Assembly: GCA_913043225.1 (NCBI GenBank)
Contig: CAJWLU010000001.1
Coordinates: forward strand, 267,882-331,881
Direction of reading: 5' to 3'
Source of the DNA: an uncultured Acidobacteriota bacterium
Lineage (GTDB): Bacteria > Acidobacteriota > Vicinamibacteria > Vicinamibacterales > UBA8438
Length of the DNA stretch: 64,000 nucleotides
Part shown: positions 16,098 through 55,218 of the stretch, piece after piece
Numbering within the stretch: the first letter of the stretch is position 1
How the letters are laid out: the number at the start of each line of letters is the position of its first letter
The notes under the pieces: generated by a model
What the model saw: only the letters and a program-made list of their open reading frames with translations
Databases searched by the model: none
What the model was told of the DNA's origin: nothing
Made by a program: the position numbers and the translations under genes

Positions 16098-17189
16098 ATG
16101 TCTGAAACGTCACCGTCGGCGTCTCCGTCGCCTGACGACCCGCCGGCGCCACGCGCCAAGCCGCGCCGGTCTCGCCGTCGCCCGGTCTGGGCGAGATGGC
16201 CGGACGAGAAACTGCTCGATGTCCGGATGTGCGATCTGGGCGTCAGCATCGAGGGCACTGCGGTCGAGCGCCGCATCAACGACCTCAACCGGGAGCTCGC
16301 AGCACGCGGGATCATCTTCCGTGCGCACTTCTGGATCGCGGATGAATGGTTCACGCCGGACGACGTTCCAGGTGTGGCGGTGCCCTTCTACCTCGTGCAC
16401 CCCCGGCTGGCGCAACTGGAGCTGGCGCAAATGCTGGAGGTAGAGGGCGGCTCCAAAGACTGGTGCCTGCGGATTCTGCGTCACGAGGTGGGCCACGCCA
16501 TCGATAACGCCTACCGGCTGCAACGGCGCCGCAGACGCCAGAAGCTCTTCGGGCTGTCGTCCACCCAGTATCCTGAGTACTACACGCCGCGCCCCTACAG
16601 TAAGAGCTTCGTACTCCACCTCGACTCGTGGTACGCACAGAGCCACCCGGACGAGGACTTCGCCGAAACGTTCGCAGTCTGGCTGAACCCCCGATCCGAC
16701 TGGCCCAGACGCTATGCGGACTGGCCGGCGCTGAAGAAGCTCGAGTACGTGGACCTGGTGATGCGCGAGATCGCCGGGACGGACCCGGTAGTCACCACGC
16801 GTCGGACGGTCGATTCCCTACCGAGCTTGCGCAAAACCCTACGGCAGCACTACCAGGAAAAGAGGCGTCGATTCGGACTCGACTACCCCAATTTCTACGA
16901 CCGTGACCTCCGGCGTCTGTTCTCGGACGCTCCCGAACATGCCGGCAACCTGACCGCGGCTCGGTTCCTGACGCGCGTGCGCCGGGACGTCCGGCGGCGG
17001 GTAGCGCGGTGGACTGGTGAGTACCAGTATCGGATCGACCAGGTCCTCAACGACATGATCGAGCGTTGCGACGCGATCCAACTGCACCTGGCCAACCCCG
17101 AAGACAGTAGCAAGCTCGACTTCATGGTGCTGCTGACCGTGCAGACGATGAACTACCTGCATGGCGGCCGCCATCGGATCGCTCTGTGA
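16098..17189 (+). CDS. putative zinc-binding metallopeptidase (uncharacterised zincin family)
   Basis: ATG at 16098 (MSETSPSASPSPDD...); upstream codons of the tracked ORF overlap the ettA promoter side. HExxH motif HEVGH at 16482-16496 within RILRHEVGHAIDNAY, plus HPDEDFAETFAVWL. Stop overlaps the next gene's start. Confidence 0.7.
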   Translation: MSETSPSASPSPDDPPAPRAKPRRSRRRPVWARWPDEKLLDVRMCDLGVSIEGTAVERRINDLNRELAARGIIFRAHFWIADEWFTPDDVPGVAVPFYLVHPRLAQLELAQMLEVEGGSKDWCLRILRHEVGHAIDNAYRLQRRRRRQKLFGLSSTQYPEYYTPRPYSKSFVLHLDSWYAQSHPDEDFAETFAVWLNPRSDWPRRYADWPALKKLEYVDLVMREIAGTDPVVTTRRTVDSLPSLRKTLRQHYQEKRRRFGLDYPNFYDRDLRRLFSDAPEHAGNLTAARFLTRVRRDVRRRVARWTGEYQYRIDQVLNDMIERCDAIQLHLANPEDSSKLDFMVLLTVQTMNYLHGGRHRIAL

Positions 17190-45960: not shown

Positions 45961-46482
45961 ATGACTGGAATGAGAGCGCTCGTCGGTCACGGACTCCGCG
46001 CGGGAATGCTCGTCGTCCTGGCGACCGCCATGGCCTCGGCGCAGCCGGCCATCATGCGAAACATGTGGGAAGGCCCGGTCGTGCTGCCCGGGACAGACCC
46101 GCGCGCCCCGGTTGAGGACACCATTGCCGTGGACGGGGTCCGTCTCCGCGACCGGATCGAATCGCAAGATCTTCCGAATCCGCTCGAGCCCACTCCTGAC
46201 GTGCTGGCGGACGGAGAGCAACTCTACGGCACCTATTGCGCGGTGTGCCACGGCCAGGCCGGCCAGGGCGATGGCCAGATCGCCAGCCATTTTCGTCGGA
46301 TGCCCGACCTGCGGCTGCCGCACATCCAAGAGAACTACACCGACGGCTGGATCTACGCCATCATCCGCGAGGGTGGCTTCAACATGCCTCCGCTCGCCTC
46401 ACAGCTCAGCCCCGAGGAACGGTGGGCGGTCGTGCTCTACGTGAAGTCGTTCGAGACCGTCCGGCCCCAGAGACGCCAATGA
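45961..46482 (+). CDS. actE: Alternative Complex III subunit ActE (monoheme cytochrome c)
   Basis: Signal/anchor N-terminus, a single CAVCH motif in GEQLYGTYCAVCHGQAGQGDG, and distal Met in GGFNMPP. Confidence 0.8.
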   Translation: MTGMRALVGHGLRAGMLVVLATAMASAQPAIMRNMWEGPVVLPGTDPRAPVEDTIAVDGVRLRDRIESQDLPNPLEPTPDVLADGEQLYGTYCAVCHGQAGQGDGQIASHFRRMPDLRLPHIQENYTDGWIYAIIREGGFNMPPLASQLSPEERWAVVLYVKSFETVRPQRRQ

Positions 46483-47723
46483 TCGCGGTCGGAACCCCCA
46501 TCGTGCCCGACGGCACACGCCGTCTCTGTCTGGGCGCCGGCCTGGTCGGCGCCTTGTCGTTCGTGGCAGGACTGTTCATCGGCGACAGCATCCGGGCCTG
46601 GCAGTCGCTGCTGGTGAATTTCCTGTTCTTCGGCGGATTGGCGCAGGCAGGCGTGGTCCTCTCGGCGATCATGCAGGTCACCTCCTCTCGTTGGGGGCGT
46701 GGTCTCAAGCGCACGGCGGAAGCCACCTCCGCGTTCTTCCCCATCTCGTTCGTGCTGCTCGTCGTGCTCCTGCTCGGCACGAGCGCGTGGATGCCCTGGG
46801 TGCACCATCCGGTCGAAGCGAAGACGCCGTGGCTCAACATCCCGTTCTTCGTGAGCCGGCAACTCGTCGGATTCTTCCTGCTCTCCGGACTGAGCGCCCT
46901 CTATGTCTACCGGTCGCTCCGGGCGGACATCGGTCAGCTCGATGAGTCGGCCGAGGTGAAGGCCACCGGCATCAGCCGACGCCTGATCGAGGGGTGGCAG
47001 GGAACCGACGCCGAGCGCGACGCCTCACAACGGTCCCAGAGCCGGCTGGCCCCCGCGATCCTGATCGCCTACGGGTGGATCTTCACCCTAGTGGGTTTCG
47101 ACTTCTTCATGTCGCTCGAACCGCACTGGTTCTCCACTCTGGCTGGCGGCTACTACTTCATCGGCAATCTCTTCATCGGGATCGCGTTCCTCAGCGTGAT
47201 CGCCGTGTGGTCGCGCGACAAGCTACAGCTGGCCCACTACATCGGCTCGCATCAGCTCCACGACATCGGGAAGCTCCTGTTCGGCTTCTGTATTCTGTGG
47301 GCATACATGTTCTGGTCGCAGTATCTCGTCATCTGGTACGGCGACCTGGCCGAAGAGACCGAGTTCATCTATCACCGCATGCACGGCGCCTGGGCGCCGG
47401 TCGCCTGGATCGTGTTCGCGATGGCGTTCGTCATCCCGTTCGTGGTGCTCCTGAGCCGGGCGGTCAAGACGAATGCCCGTGGCCTGACCATCATCGCGCT
47501 CGTGGCCTTCGTCGGGATGTGGCTCGAGCGGTTCATTCTGGTGTCACCGTCTCTCTGGCAGGGTGACGGCGTTCCCCTCGGTCTGGTCGAGTTGCTGGTC
47601 ACGGTTGGCGTCGGCGGGTTGTTCGCCTGGTGCTACCTGACCTTCCTGCAGACGTTCCCGGTAATCCCGGTGGCCGATCCCCGATTGGAACCAGCCTCCG
47701 CACATCCCAACGCTCACCATTGA
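46479..47723 (+). CDS. actF: Alternative Complex III subunit ActF (NrfD-like membrane subunit, ActC paralog)
   Basis: ATG at 46479 overlaps the actE stop (ATGA). Polytopic membrane protein. The upstream 81 codons of the tracked ORF (46236-) overlap actE and are not coding. Confidence 0.8.
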   Translation: MIAVGTPIVPDGTRRLCLGAGLVGALSFVAGLFIGDSIRAWQSLLVNFLFFGGLAQAGVVLSAIMQVTSSRWGRGLKRTAEATSAFFPISFVLLVVLLLGTSAWMPWVHHPVEAKTPWLNIPFFVSRQLVGFFLLSGLSALYVYRSLRADIGQLDESAEVKATGISRRLIEGWQGTDAERDASQRSQSRLAPAILIAYGWIFTLVGFDFFMSLEPHWFSTLAGGYYFIGNLFIGIAFLSVIAVWSRDKLQLAHYIGSHQLHDIGKLLFGFCILWAYMFWSQYLVIWYGDLAEETEFIYHRMHGAWAPVAWIVFAMAFVIPFVVLLSRAVKTNARGLTIIALVAFVGMWLERFILVSPSLWQGDGVPLGLVELLVTVGVGGLFAWCYLTFLQTFPVIPVADPRLEPASAHPNAHH

Positions 47724-51330: not shown

Positions 51331-52929
51331 ATGCCGACCCTGAGCCAGTGCACCTGCTGCGCCGCCCTTGTCACGCTGCTACTGAGCGCACCGATTGCCA
51401 TCGCACAGGATCCGCCCGAGTTACCGGAGCAGTATCGCGATCCGATCGACCTGATGGCCGAAGTGCTCGGCACCTACGCCTTCGAGATCTCCTCGGAGTC
51501 CGCCGAGGCGCAAGACTTCTTCAACCAGGGGATGCAACTGATGTTCGCCTTTGCCAAGGCGGACGCGGTACGGTCGTTCCGTGAGGCGTGGAAGCGGGAT
51601 CCAAACTGCGCCATCTGCTACTGGGGCGAGGCGTGGGCCTGGGGCTCGTATCTGAACGGGCCAATGCGACCGCCCGAGGCACCGCACGCCTACTCCGCCG
51701 CACAGCAGGCTAGACGGCTGTCAGAAGTGCACGCCAACGCGAAAGAGCGGGCCTACATCGATGCGCTGTCGGTGCGCTATGTCGAGAACTTCGAAGTCGA
51801 CAAACGGCGCGATCAGGACGAGGCCTACGCCGAAGCGATGCGACTACTGGTGGACCGGTTCCCGGACGACCTCGACGCGACCACGCTCTATGGCGATGCG
51901 CTCTTTCTGCTGGAGCCCAGGCGTGGCACCCGCGACCTCAACGACCCCAGGGTTCAGCGACTGCATGCGGTGCTCGAGAGCGTGCTCGAACGGGACATCA
52001 AACATCCCGGCGCCTGTCACCTCTATATCCACGCCACCGAGTCGACCTCACGACCGGACAAGGCCGAGGCCTGTGCGGAGCATCTTGGGCTGGCCATCCC
52101 CGGAGCAAGCCATATCAACCACATGCCGTCGCACACCTGGAACGAGGTGGGCCGTTGGGGTGATGGCGTCCGCTCGAACCTGCGCGCCTGGCACTCGGAC
52201 CAGATGTCCGAGTTCGGAACCGGGATCGCCATTTACCCAACCCACAACCTGCACATGCTGCTCTTCGCCGCGTCGATGGACGGGCAAGGCGCGATCGCCA
52301 TCCAGGCAGGCAAGGATTTCCACAAGCTGACCGGCAACAGCGTGCATCATGCCCTAACCCTAATCCGCTTCGGAAGATTCGACGAAGTCCTCAAGGTTAC
52401 CGAGCGCCCTGACAGTGAGGTGGCCGGCGGGCTGTGGGACTTCGCGCAGGGCTACGCGCACCTGCGTGAGGGCGACGTCGACTTCGCGGAGGTCTATCTG
52501 AATCGGGTGAAGGAGCTAGCGGCGACCTCTGAGGCGCAGATGCGGTTCCACCCGGCAGAGACCCTGCTCGGCGTAGCCGCAGGCATCCTCGAGGGCGAGC
52601 TCCATCGTGAGGCAAGCGACCTGAACGCCGCCGAATCCGCGTTTGAGCAAGCCGTTGAGCTTGAGGACAGCCTGGCCTACGACGAACCTGAGCCGCTGCC
52701 CTTTGCCGCCAGACACTGGCTGGGGGCGCTCCTCCTCGAACGGGAACGATGGGCCGAGGCGGAGCAGGTGTTCAGAGCTGAGCTCGATGACCACCCCCAC
52801 AACGGGTGGTCCCTGTTCGGCCTGAAGACGGCGATCGAAGCCCAGGGTCGCACCGACGCCGACGTGGATGCCGACCTCGAACAGAGCTGGGCGCGCGCCG
52901 ACACCTGGCTGTACACGCCGCGTTATTGA
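51331..52929 (+). CDS. secreted TPR-like repeat protein (conserved hypothetical)
   Basis: Signal peptide (CCAALVTLLLSAPIAIAQ). Helical-repeat sequence (AQDFFNQGMQLMFAFAKADAVRSFREAWKRDPNCAICYWGEAWAWG...). No functional family recalled. Confidence 0.6.
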   Translation: MPTLSQCTCCAALVTLLLSAPIAIAQDPPELPEQYRDPIDLMAEVLGTYAFEISSESAEAQDFFNQGMQLMFAFAKADAVRSFREAWKRDPNCAICYWGEAWAWGSYLNGPMRPPEAPHAYSAAQQARRLSEVHANAKERAYIDALSVRYVENFEVDKRRDQDEAYAEAMRLLVDRFPDDLDATTLYGDALFLLEPRRGTRDLNDPRVQRLHAVLESVLERDIKHPGACHLYIHATESTSRPDKAEACAEHLGLAIPGASHINHMPSHTWNEVGRWGDGVRSNLRAWHSDQMSEFGTGIAIYPTHNLHMLLFAASMDGQGAIAIQAGKDFHKLTGNSVHHALTLIRFGRFDEVLKVTERPDSEVAGGLWDFAQGYAHLREGDVDFAEVYLNRVKELAATSEAQMRFHPAETLLGVAAGILEGELHREASDLNAAESAFEQAVELEDSLAYDEPEPLPFAARHWLGALLLERERWAEAEQVFRAELDDHPHNGWSLFGLKTAIEAQGRTDADVDADLEQSWARADTWLYTPRY

Positions 52930-54155
52930 GACACACCGAAGTCGAGGGGACGACCACGCCAGGTGCTCGTCTTCAGCTCCAGCACGTGGCGATCGGGATC
53001 ACGCAAATAGAGACTGCGACCTCCCTCCGGCCAGTCGACTACGCTCTCGATCTCGATACCCGCGTCGTGAAGACGCGACCGCCAGCGGTCCAGATCGGCC
53101 GGGCGGATACCGAACGCTAGATGCTGCTGCCCGCGACCGTCCGAGGACGGAATCGTTCCATGTGGCGTCACCGTCGGTTCGACCGACGCGCCCTGCTTGA
53201 ATAACAGCAGCACTTGATTCTCGGCCACGTCGAGGGCCGCCATCCGCTCCATCGGCTCCATCGCGCGGGTGAAGCCCAGCACGCGCTGATAGAACTCAAC
53301 CGACCGACCGAGATCGGCGACGTAAAGCGCCGTCTCGGTCACCGCAACTACCTTCTCCTCGGCTGCCAGAGCCCGCTTCTCTGCCTGCTCCTCCTCACGC
53401 ACGCGCGTGAGCGCGGACGCGATGAGCCCGGTCGGCACCGCCACCACCCCCAGCCCCGCCATCAGAACCAGGAACGTGAACATACGCCCGCCCGCCGTCA
53501 CGGGGAAGGCGTCTCCGTAGCCGACTGTAGTTAGGGTGACCACCGCCCACCAGAGACTGTCGAAGACCGACGCAAATGTCTCCGGCTGAGCGGCGTTCTC
53601 GAAGTAATGGATGCCCACCGCGGACAGATAGATGAGCACCATGGCGGTGCCCAGAAAGGCGATCAGTTCCTCGCGCACGAGGACGGCAGCCCGTCGGAAC
53701 CTAGCCATCGCGTCGCCGTAGCGGGCCAGTTTGAGGATGCGGGCCAGACGGAACAGCCGCAGCGCGCGGATCGAACGCAAGTCGACCCCCAGCGCCACAT
53801 AGAACGGCAAGATCGCCAGCAAGTCGACCACGCCGAAGAAGCTGAAGACGAACGTGAGCTTCCGGTCCGCCACCAGTAACCGGAGCAGATATTCAATGGT
53901 AAACACGACCACCGAGAACACTTCCAGGCGGCGAAGGAGTTCTAGGGTCTCCGGTGACAGATCCGGCAGGGTCTCGATCGAGAACGCGGCAATGGTGAGA
54001 AGGATGACCCCCACCACGACGGCGTCGAAGAGACGACCGGCGAAGGTATCGGTATCCTCGACGATGCGCTTCAGACTCACGCCGGAAGTGTATCGCGGGC
54101 AAGCTGGCCCGAGACGCGAACGGAGGGGATCAATACAGGAGCATGGCGACGACAA
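52923..54155 (-). CDS. voltage-sensor-type K+ channel fused to a C-terminal VOC (glyoxalase/bleomycin-resistance/dioxygenase-like) domain
   Basis: S4 LRSIRALRLFRLARILKLARY (53718-53780). Selectivity filter TTVGYGD (53511-53531). Linker REEEQAEKRALAAEEK. VOC-like ALYVADLGRSVEFYQRVLGF...HLAFGI...SLYLRDPDRHVLEL (52962-53351). Start at 54155 (26-nt overlap with the VWA gene) or GTG 54080. Confidence 0.8.
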   Translation of the reverse strand: MSSPCSCIDPLRSRLGPACPRYTSGVSLKRIVEDTDTFAGRLFDAVVVGVILLTIAAFSIETLPDLSPETLELLRRLEVFSVVVFTIEYLLRLLVADRKLTFVFSFFGVVDLLAILPFYVALGVDLRSIRALRLFRLARILKLARYGDAMARFRRAAVLVREELIAFLGTAMVLIYLSAVGIHYFENAAQPETFASVFDSLWWAVVTLTTVGYGDAFPVTAGGRMFTFLVLMAGLGVVAVPTGLIASALTRVREEEQAEKRALAAEEKVVAVTETALYVADLGRSVEFYQRVLGFTRAMEPMERMAALDVAENQVLLLFKQGASVEPTVTPHGTIPSSDGRGQQHLAFGIRPADLDRWRSRLHDAGIEIESVVDWPEGGRSLYLRDPDRHVLELKTSTWRGRPLDFGVSQ

Positions 54156-55218
54156 ACATCAGGATGGCCAGCATCACCACCCACTGCCAGACCTCCTGCT
54201 TATCGTCGGACGGGATGAGCTGGAACGAGATACTGCGGTGGCTGTCGACCACGTTGCGGAGGAAGTTGGCTGATTCGAGCTGCTGGCTGTCCATAGAAAA
54301 GGTGCGCCCGCCAGTGCGCTGCACCACCATGTTGATGCCATCCTGCTCCAGCCGGGTCCGCTGCCCGTCGAGGTCGGCCTCCAACGTCTCGTCATAGTCG
54401 ACACCACGAATGTAGTCGAGCAGCACGGTGTCCACGTTGACCCCAGTCCGGCTCCCGATCCCGATCGGGTAGATCGCGAGCCCCCGGCGGTTGAACTCAC
54501 CGAGAGCGATATCCAGACGGCTCCGCTGTTCGGCGTCGATCAGAAAGTCTCCGTCGGTGAACAGCAGGACCAGACGGTCGCTCCGCTCCTCGGGCTGCCA
54601 GTCGTCCTCACCCGACTCGAACCGATCCTGATTGTCGAGCGACAGATAGATCGACTCGAACGCGGTCGCGATGTCGCTGTCCCAGGGAAACGCATCGCCA
54701 GACAGTGTCAACGGCGGACCGATCCGCCCCACCTCTTCCACGAACCGTTCAGCGTTGGACGACAGGTGGACCCGACGTAGTGCCGTGGTGCCCCAAACGA
54801 ACACGGCGGTACGGTCGCCCGGCGTCAGCAGGTCTTGCGTGTACAGACTCAGCGCCTCCCGCACGGCGAGGTCGAGTCGCGATGGACCAAGGTCCTTGAC
54901 CCACATGGAGGCCGAGGCGTCGACCGCCACGATGACGTCCACGTCGCCCCGCTTGAAGCTCGACGCACCGTAGACCCAGAACGGCCTCGCGGCGGCCACC
55001 GCCACGAGCGTGAGTGCTGCAATCGCGAAGAACCAGAACTTAATGTGACCGAACAGGGGGTAGTTCGACCCTTCGCTGCGGGCCGGTCTCAATTGCAAGC
55101 GGAGCGCAAAGACGACCAGTCCGAAGGCCAGCAGCAGCCCAGCGATCGGCACGATAGCCAGATACTCCGGGTTGGCGAACTCGACACTGTCCCGGAACAG
55201 GCTGGTGATGGCGTCCAC
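54130..55218 (-). CDS. VWA domain-containing membrane protein (BatA/BatB-like)
   Basis: N-terminal FANPEYLAIVPIAGLLLAFGLVVFAL plus a second TM. MIDAS DVIVAVDASASMW. C-terminal TM (WQWVVMLAILMFVVAMLLY*). Confidence 0.85.
   Translation of the reverse strand: MDAITSLFRDSVEFANPEYLAIVPIAGLLLAFGLVVFALRLQLRPARSEGSNYPLFGHIKFWFFAIAALTLVAVAAARPFWVYGASSFKRGDVDVIVAVDASASMWVKDLGPSRLDLAVREALSLYTQDLLTPGDRTAVFVWGTTALRRVHLSSNAERFVEEVGRIGPPLTLSGDAFPWDSDIATAFESIYLSLDNQDRFESGEDDWQPEERSDRLVLLFTDGDFLIDAEQRSRLDIALGEFNRRGLAIYPIGIGSRTGVNVDTVLLDYIRGVDYDETLEADLDGQRTRLEQDGINMVVQRTGGRTFSMDSQQLESANFLRNVVDSHRSISFQLIPSDDKQEVWQWVVMLAILMFVVAMLLY

Follow-up and report, generated by a model that had tools for sequence, protein, structure and literature searches.

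A voltage-sensor potassium channel joined to a vicinal oxygen chelate domain in uncultured marine Acidobacteria

The stretch of 64,000 nucleotides analysed here (hereafter the window; GenBank assembly GCA_913043225.1, contig CAJWLU010000001.1, positions 267,882 to 331,881) derives from an uncultured Acidobacteriota bacterium and carries, on its reverse strand, a single gene for a complete voltage-gated (Kv-type) six-transmembrane (6TM) K+ channel joined to a C-terminal domain of the vicinal oxygen chelate (VOC) fold. As a channel the protein is of a familiar type, its appendage being what is new, and the combination is both conserved and rare. In the explanation favoured here, the S6 helix of a voltage-sensor K+ channel appears to be extended through a charged linker into a VOC domain; this fusion would have arisen once in a clade of uncultured marine Acidobacteria and been kept by selection since; and the VOC domain may have kept its ability to bind a metal and a small ligand, or to catalyse its ancestral reaction, and could modulate opening or assembly of the channel through its state of ligand or metal binding or through its pairing between subunits. 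This explanation as a whole is given a probability of roughly 0.5. Its anatomical and evolutionary part, taken alone, is considered very probable, and the role of the VOC domain in gating or assembly is a tentative proposal standing somewhat short of an even chance.

The open reading frame (ORF) at 52923-54155 on the reverse strand is uninterrupted by any internal stop codon and holds the S4 helix, the TTVGYGD filter, the S6 helix, the charged linker and the VOC-like stretch at the positions given for them in a preliminary description of this DNA. The mechanical ORF reaches upstream to a TTG codon at 54155, but as judged from related sequences, translation almost certainly starts at the GTG at 54080, since all five orthologues start at GTG (with a common N-terminus of V/M-SLKRIVE(D/E)TDT) and the sequence further upstream is not conserved, only about 20 nucleotides above the GTG being shared with loci L001 and L005. 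The gene (52923..54080, reverse strand; 385 codons and a TAA stop) therefore encodes a product of 385 residues. The preliminary description had entertained both starts; its alternative at GTG 54080 is supported here, whereas the 26-nucleotide overlap with the upstream VWA gene that came with the longer frame is not, as the two genes lie 49 nucleotides apart.

The channel half displays all of the parts expected of its kind. The voltage-sensor domain comprises helices S1-S4 of the full-length model (53718..54044), among which S4 (LRSIRALRLFRLARILKLARY, 53718-53780) bears seven Arg or Lys residues, one at every third position. The pore domain, consisting of S5, the pore helix, the filter and S6 (53415..53675; Pfam Ion_trans_2, E = 3.6e-16), presents the selectivity filter TTVGYGD (53511-53531), which is invariant in alignments. 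Two Pfam families cover this half (residue ranges of Pfam matches, here and below, refer to the translation of the 410-codon ORF), namely Ion_trans (PF00520; residues 41-256, E = 3.1e-33, 115.4 bits against a cutoff of 25) and Ion_trans_2 (PF07885; residues 173-250, 59.2 bits against a cutoff of 22.5), and chains of Kv4, Kv2, Kv1 and KvAP in the PDB are matched at 1e-15 to 1e-28. Residues F60 and E63 of S2 and D86 of S3, which we take to be the charge-transfer centre, are invariant across an alignment of 64 channels. Thousands of unfused proteins of 236 residues are 60-77% identical to the channel half. Two oddities were seen among its more general homologues: in P0006 (332 residues) a segment of about 95 residues covering S3-S5 is repeated nearly exactly in tandem, which could be an assembly artefact or a real duplication, and P0121, P0122, P0191, P0203 and P0210 (approximately 1,100-1,750 residues) each contain four to six consecutive channel-like units and could be concatenated four-domain channels or eukaryotic sequences.

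Beyond S6, a charged C-linker of 25 residues (ALTRVREEEQAEKRALAAEEKVVAV, 53340..53414), modelled as a continuation of the S6 helix, leads into the VOC domain of 127 residues (52959..53339), comprised of paired beta-alpha-beta-beta-beta units. As the preliminary description had anticipated, the channel and VOC matches fall on non-overlapping halves of the product and the match of the C-terminal module is significant (Pfam Glyoxalase, PF00903; residues 275-394, E = 4.2e-12, 47 bits against a cutoff of 20.6). A model of the VOC half (predicted local distance difference test score, pLDDT, 93.4) contains both units with strands and helices in the expected order, and finds 339 VOC matches in the PDB at E <= 1e-3. 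The best of these relatives is 3R4Q from Agrobacterium tumefaciens, annotated as a lactoylglutathione lyase (E = 1.6e-12 by sequence; TM-score 0.81-0.87, root-mean-square deviation (rmsd) about 2.5 A), which shares the ETALY...H...E and WP-x-GG-x-S-x-Y-x-RDPD motifs and whose packing of the two units is followed in the model. FosA, FosX and FosB match less well (sequence E of about 1e-6; TM-score near 0.64 and rmsd near 7.7 A). A literature search found no paper on the 3R4Q structure, which therefore supplies no functional assignment.

The VOC half bears a putative metal triad of E249 (53334-53336), H320 (53121-53123) and E368 (52977-52979; 385-residue numbering, reverse strand), located on strands beta1, beta5 and beta8 and aligned with H7, H64/67 and E110/113 of FosA. 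In FosA, H7, H64 and E110 are ligands of Mn2+ (PMC12037509). Among 83 free-standing relatives of the VOC half, H320 and E368 are invariant and E249 is present in 82, with one gap, and all three are kept in the five fused orthologues, so that the candidate ligands whose retention the preliminary description had singled out for inspection do appear to be retained. Residues Y264, R279, S356, Y358, R360 and W374 are likewise invariant in the free-standing set, and K295 nearly so. Indeed, of the 36 positions conserved in at least 90% of the free-standing set, 33 carry the identical residue in every one of the five fused orthologues; the module is thus being maintained rather than decaying and, to judge from these residues, probably keeps an ancestral capacity for binding of metal and ligand.

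Several more specific identities were considered for the VOC half and rejected. Its best NCBIfam matches are to FosA, FosB and FosX, but at 36-40 bits against cutoffs of 170-310, and every NCBIfam match falls far under its curated cutoff. A fosfomycin-resistance enzyme is further discounted by the absence of conservation, across the subfamily, of the equivalents of T9, Y62, K90, N92, S94 and E95, as drawn from the published list of fosfomycin-binding and K+-loop residues of FosA (PMC12037509). Sensing of K+ through a loop of the FosA type is similarly unsupported: within the loop, conservation is limited to the Gly, Ser and Tyr positions, the equivalents of N92, S94 and E95 vary across the subfamily and the loop contains a one-residue insertion. 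A canonical glyoxalase I is also rejected, as the glyox_I_GloA model scores 22.7 bits against a cutoff of 165 and the H/E/H/E site of that enzyme is not reproduced, strand beta4 bearing the conserved Lys K295 in place of the Glu ligand.

That the join is genuine follows from its recurrence. Uninterrupted fused orthologues 68-98% identical to the window protein (P0001, 98%; P0002, 88%; P0003, 75%; P0004, 68%), along with the partial sequence P0005, come from independent assemblies that include Tara Oceans, several ENA runs, JGI, and NCBI entries MBM41789.1 and SUZ55651.1; the closest named genome is a metagenome-assembled genome of an uncultured marine Acidobacteria. An assembly of unstated quality, and related loci in which channel and VOC are carried as separate genes, might have raised the fear that two genes had been merged here by a chimeric join or by an error such as a frameshift or the loss of a stop. 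Such an artefact is refuted by the fused orthologues and retains a negligible probability: the same unbroken ORF is found in many independent assemblies at 68-98% identity, divergence across the junction region is compensated at the codon level with a low ratio of nonsynonymous to synonymous substitution (dN/dS), and no orthologue of the fused clade has a stop between S6 and the VOC domain, which lays to rest the chimeric join that the preliminary description had wished to see excluded. In pairwise comparisons of the fused orthologues by the Nei-Gojobori method, dN/dS ranges over 0.05-0.16 in the channel half and over 0.07-0.20 in the VOC half, with dS often above 1; selection is therefore acting to preserve channel and VOC domain alike in their fused form. 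The linker reaches a dN/dS of up to about 0.9, on few sites, and is constant in length to within one residue.

The origin of the fusion can be followed at the locus itself. Syntenic loci display the order TonB-dependent receptor, MoxR, DUF58, a gene of 362-380 residues (a mechanical ORF of 406 residues is its counterpart in the window), VWA (376 residues), a gene of 221 residues, VWA (362 residues) and then a variable slot. On the far side of the slot lie a convergent tetratricopeptide repeat (TPR) gene (532 residues), two CoA-transferase genes, a dehydrogenase and a methyltransferase, the order being the same in the window; the TPR gene flanks the 3' side in every syntenic locus that reaches past the 3' end (L001-L004, L010, L018-L020, L025 and L104/L105). 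The TPR-adjacent position is occupied by the channel-VOC fusion in the window, L001-L005, L011 and L104/L105; by an unfused 236-residue channel (P0017, 69-71% identical) in L010; and by a free-standing VOC gene of 147 residues (P0281, 63% identical to the VOC half) in L018-L020. In L025, too, the TPR orthologue is faced by a convergent VOC gene that stands alone. Locus L021 is not a further case of VWA followed by VOC, as its upstream gene of 362 residues is not an orthologue of the VWA gene.

A neighbour-joining tree built from the channel halves recovers the fused proteins as one monophyletic group nested within the unfused 236-residue channels, and in a tree of VOC halves the fused sequences cluster with P0281 and its close free-standing relatives. 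No VOC similarity remains in the 525-nucleotide, repeat-rich gap past the unfused channel of L010, no channel similarity was found anywhere in L018-L020, including upstream of the free-standing VOC gene, and none of 80 metagenome loci with free-standing VOC genes presents an adjacent, unfused channel and VOC pair; because that intermediate was not found, the polarity of the fusion rests on the trees. The simplest reading of these sequences is that adjoining channel and VOC genes would have fused locally, once, in the ancestor of the clade, with differential loss in sister lineages. The gap in L010 (10711-11236) holds several copies of a G+C-rich repeat, translating as GFGAQPRL.../GPRGVRGAAPS..., that may be a REP-like element marking the site of VOC gene loss.

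Channel-VOC fusions number at least about nine clusters at 90% identity, five of these in the family of the window protein. Such counts, obtained by a profile search over approximately 7,600 scored channel homologues in which the fused proteins ranked first, are lower bounds, because a word-indexed search with the VOC half alone missed known fusions. A second fusion family (P0220, P0390, P0391 and P0394; 373-386 residues) is 61-92% identical internally and about 31% identical to the window protein; its loci have a G+C content of 46-57% and one fragment is labelled Fibrobacteraceae. The VOC half of this family also scores below curated cutoffs, shows by eye an H/E/H/E pattern like that of glyoxalase I and is placed far from the VOC subfamily of the window in the tree. 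With two different VOC subtypes involved, channel and VOC domain must have come together on at least two occasions. In the second family the linker is of similar length and rich in Gly, Lys and Asp. In locus L017 (209-2415), the channel-VOC gene of this family comes immediately after the co-oriented genes LrgA and LrgB, at a distance of 33 nucleotides.

Other C-terminal modules occur on the same channel family in isolated cases, namely Spo0M (490 residues) and a type II chorismate mutase (349 residues), in P0130 and P0159, and these fusions also appear undescribed; together they suggest that the C-terminus of the channel readily accepts fusions. The public names of the fused channel-VOC proteins are "hypothetical protein", "voltage-gated potassium channel" and "uncharacterized protein", and UniRef is listed as a source for none of their clusters. 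Full-text literature searches found no paper describing the channel-VOC architecture, and no curated family with it was found. A survey of microbial K+ channels lists the cytoplasmic domains of 6TM channels as RCK/KTN, cyclic-nucleotide-binding and "other" and does not mention glyoxalase or VOC domains (PMC2234077). The impression of novelty given in the preliminary description thus stands: the architecture was encountered in no curated family, survey or paper, and it is not common.

What the VOC domain might do for the channel is suggested by where it is attached. The full-length model (pLDDT 74), a monomer built on an alignment with a shallow VOC half, has a single helix (196-242) spanning S6 and the linker, followed by a low-confidence hinge (241-249) and then the VOC fold; as modelled, S6 and linker are one continuous helix, and the VOC domain would therefore be attached directly to the inner-gate helix. 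Modulation of opening or assembly is proposed because the VOC domain would hang from this helix as RCK and cyclic-nucleotide-binding domains do elsewhere. In the tetramer, four VOC domains could pair beneath the pore. A stricter form of the proposal, in which the VOC domain would be a true cytoplasmic sensor and a divalent metal or a thiol-adduct or electrophile metabolite at the Glu/His/Glu pocket would alter VOC pairing and thus gating, is considered unlikely; on that view the two origins of the combination would suggest convergent evolution. The gating by a metal or small electrophile that the preliminary description had suggested is a reasonable hypothesis, and a link between the channel and electrophile or thiol-adduct chemistry is, by analogy with Kef, possible.

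A number of observations weigh against such coupling. The predicted template modelling score (pTM) of the monomer model is 0.45 and leaves the relative placement of the two domains undefined; the linker is poorly conserved in sequence, which argues against rigid mechanical coupling, as does the linker of the second family, which from its composition is probably flexible; the fusion is rare, at about nine clusters; and channel genes are absent from the surroundings of all 80 free-standing VOC loci, so that gene neighbourhood apart from the fusions themselves does not speak for a partnership. The full retention of enzyme-like residues would be equally well explained by an enzyme that is merely tethered. 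A nearly neutral event of this kind, in which the stop codon and spacer between two genes were lost, the VOC domain kept its ancestral job without a role in gating, and the fusion persists as neither half is harmed or as membrane placement of the enzyme is mildly useful, is a distinct possibility, given about one chance in three. The drifting linker, the narrow fused clade with its rare architecture and the absence of a channel-VOC neighbourhood at those 80 loci fit it well, as do the separate occurrence of channel and VOC genes at the same locus in relatives, the retention by the VOC half of essentially the whole invariant residue set of free-standing enzymes, and the tolerance of the channel C-terminus suggested by the Spo0M and chorismate mutase fusions. 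It accounts less readily for a second origin that drew on another VOC subtype and has a linker of much the same length, for a linker held to within one residue, and for the survival of the fusion, without fission, in five orthologues at dS above 1. Two origins, constant linker length and persistence at saturating synonymous divergence instead support a selected combination of channel and VOC domain.

The VOC domains could also serve as a module for assembly or stability, pairing between subunits as a cytoplasmic oligomerisation scaffold in the manner of the T1 domain or the C-terminal bundle of KcsA, with no sensing of a ligand. Small VOC proteins such as FosA are dimers (PMC10779102), and the model would place the VOC domain at the tip of a long helical extension of S6, as might befit a scaffold. 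More than 7,000 close, unfused 236-residue channels evidently assemble without a VOC domain, however, and a scaffold would need neither the strict Glu/His/Glu triad nor the conserved polar pocket; two-fold pairing of VOC domains would also have to be squared with a four-fold channel. A pure scaffold is accordingly quite improbable, and modulation of a selected, functional fusion remains the explanation preferred here.

The neighbourhood of the gene bears on a separate claim. Upstream in the window lie MoxR (AAA_3), DUF58 and two VWA_2 genes, identified by Pfam just as the preliminary description had named them. The last VWA gene of this Bat-like cluster (54130..55218, reverse strand; 362 residues, Pfam VWA_2), whose orthologues in syntenic loci are 82-97% identical, is separated from the channel start by a spacer of 49 nucleotides (54081..54129) in which no promoter-like or terminator-like site was seen; since the two genes are co-directional and so close, co-transcription is possible in the window. 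On the other side, the TPR gene (51331..52929, forward strand) overlaps the fusion gene tail to tail by 7 nucleotides (52923-52929), with the TAA of the fusion gene at 52923-52925 and the TGA of the TPR gene at 52927-52929, and there is therefore no space for an intergenic terminator between them. The same overlap of 3' ends is seen in L001 (11152-11155).

The preliminary description went further and considered the channel to be the terminal gene of a MoxR/VWA operon, probably co-transcribed with the Bat-like system. Neither that designation nor any functional link between the channel and the Bat-like system is upheld by the orthologous loci. A close arrangement recurs in L005 (same strand, gap of 42 nucleotides), and the slot is otherwise variable. 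Between the VWA and fusion genes, L001 and L011 have approximately 800-950 nucleotides with an extra ORF of 111 residues (spacers L001 9047-10000 and L011 1778-2545) that has no family match and no counterpart in the window. L104/L105 have an RF-1-domain gene, a ferredoxin gene on the opposite strand, which precludes a shared transcript there, and a gap of 307 nucleotides. The unfused channel of L010 is separated from VWA by a MacB-like permease gene and a DUF4287 gene, and the VOC gene of L018-L020 by DUF2089 and two small ORFs. No MoxR/VWA genes were found near the close unfused channels in L006 and L008 or in the context of the second-family loci (L014-L017). With no conserved, co-transcribable adjacency, and with the channels of relatives located away from MoxR/VWA genes, adjacency to the Bat-like cluster is therefore an inherited position that provides no evidence of functional coupling, and the fusion gene is a variable-slot neighbour of the cluster rather than an obligate member.

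Two further features of these loci were noted. The orthologues in L001 and L011 are 88-89% identical to the window protein, and a 68-nucleotide piece of their spacer matches L010 at 16774-16841. Downstream of the conserved block (window 45961-47723; 16130-21140 in L010 and L104) are genes for a cytochrome c, ActD, NrfD and a molybdopterin oxidoreductase, which look like an Alternative Complex III-type cluster and whose order is conserved across syntenic loci.

If the VOC domain does control the channel, a new sensor fold would be added to the RCK/KTN and cyclic-nucleotide-binding gating domains of prokaryotic K+ channels, and a compact system would be at hand for the coupling of a metalloenzyme fold to an inner gate. 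Were the sensor version true, the protein would represent a novel class of Kv channel under the control of a ligand or a metal and a one-polypeptide analogue of the link between glyoxalase and Kef, by which electrophile stress leads to K+ efflux. The reach of such findings is limited, the architecture being rare and restricted to uncultured lineages. As syntenic relatives still preserve each of the three states, with channel alone, VOC gene alone and the two fused, the locus also records, in unusual detail, a fusion of neighbouring genes in the making of a new channel architecture.

Each half of the protein has close and well-populated counterparts. Like the prokaryotic Kv-type 6TM channels (KvAP and the 236-residue "ion transporter" family), the channel half possesses S1-S6, the basic periodicity of S4, the counter-charges of S2 and S3, the TTVGYGD filter and an S6 containing Gly and Pro; unlike the 236-residue channels, which stop a few residues past S6, it continues into the 25-residue linker and the 127-residue VOC domain. 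The protein 3R4Q and the free-standing VOC subfamily of 140-150 residues are soluble and stand alone, whereas the VOC domain here is fused to a channel; FosA, FosB and FosX have the fold and three aligned metal-ligand positions in common with it, the first putative ligand being Glu here and His in FosA. In overall design, the closest parallels are MloK1, with its cyclic-nucleotide-binding domain, and Kch and MthK, with RCK domains, in which a soluble ligand-binding domain is likewise placed on the inner-gate helix through a C-linker (PMC2234077); here the fold is VOC rather than Rossmann or beta-roll, and gating by a ligand is only proposed. The Kef systems (KefB/KefC) offer a likeness in concept, that of K+ flux coupled to electrophile and glyoxalase chemistry, given that the compound formed by glyoxalase I, S-lactoylglutathione, is an activator of KefB (PMC10224563). 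This likeness serves as an idea and not as evidence, since Kef is a CPA2-type transporter with a KTN domain, and the protein described here is a Kv channel with a VOC domain.

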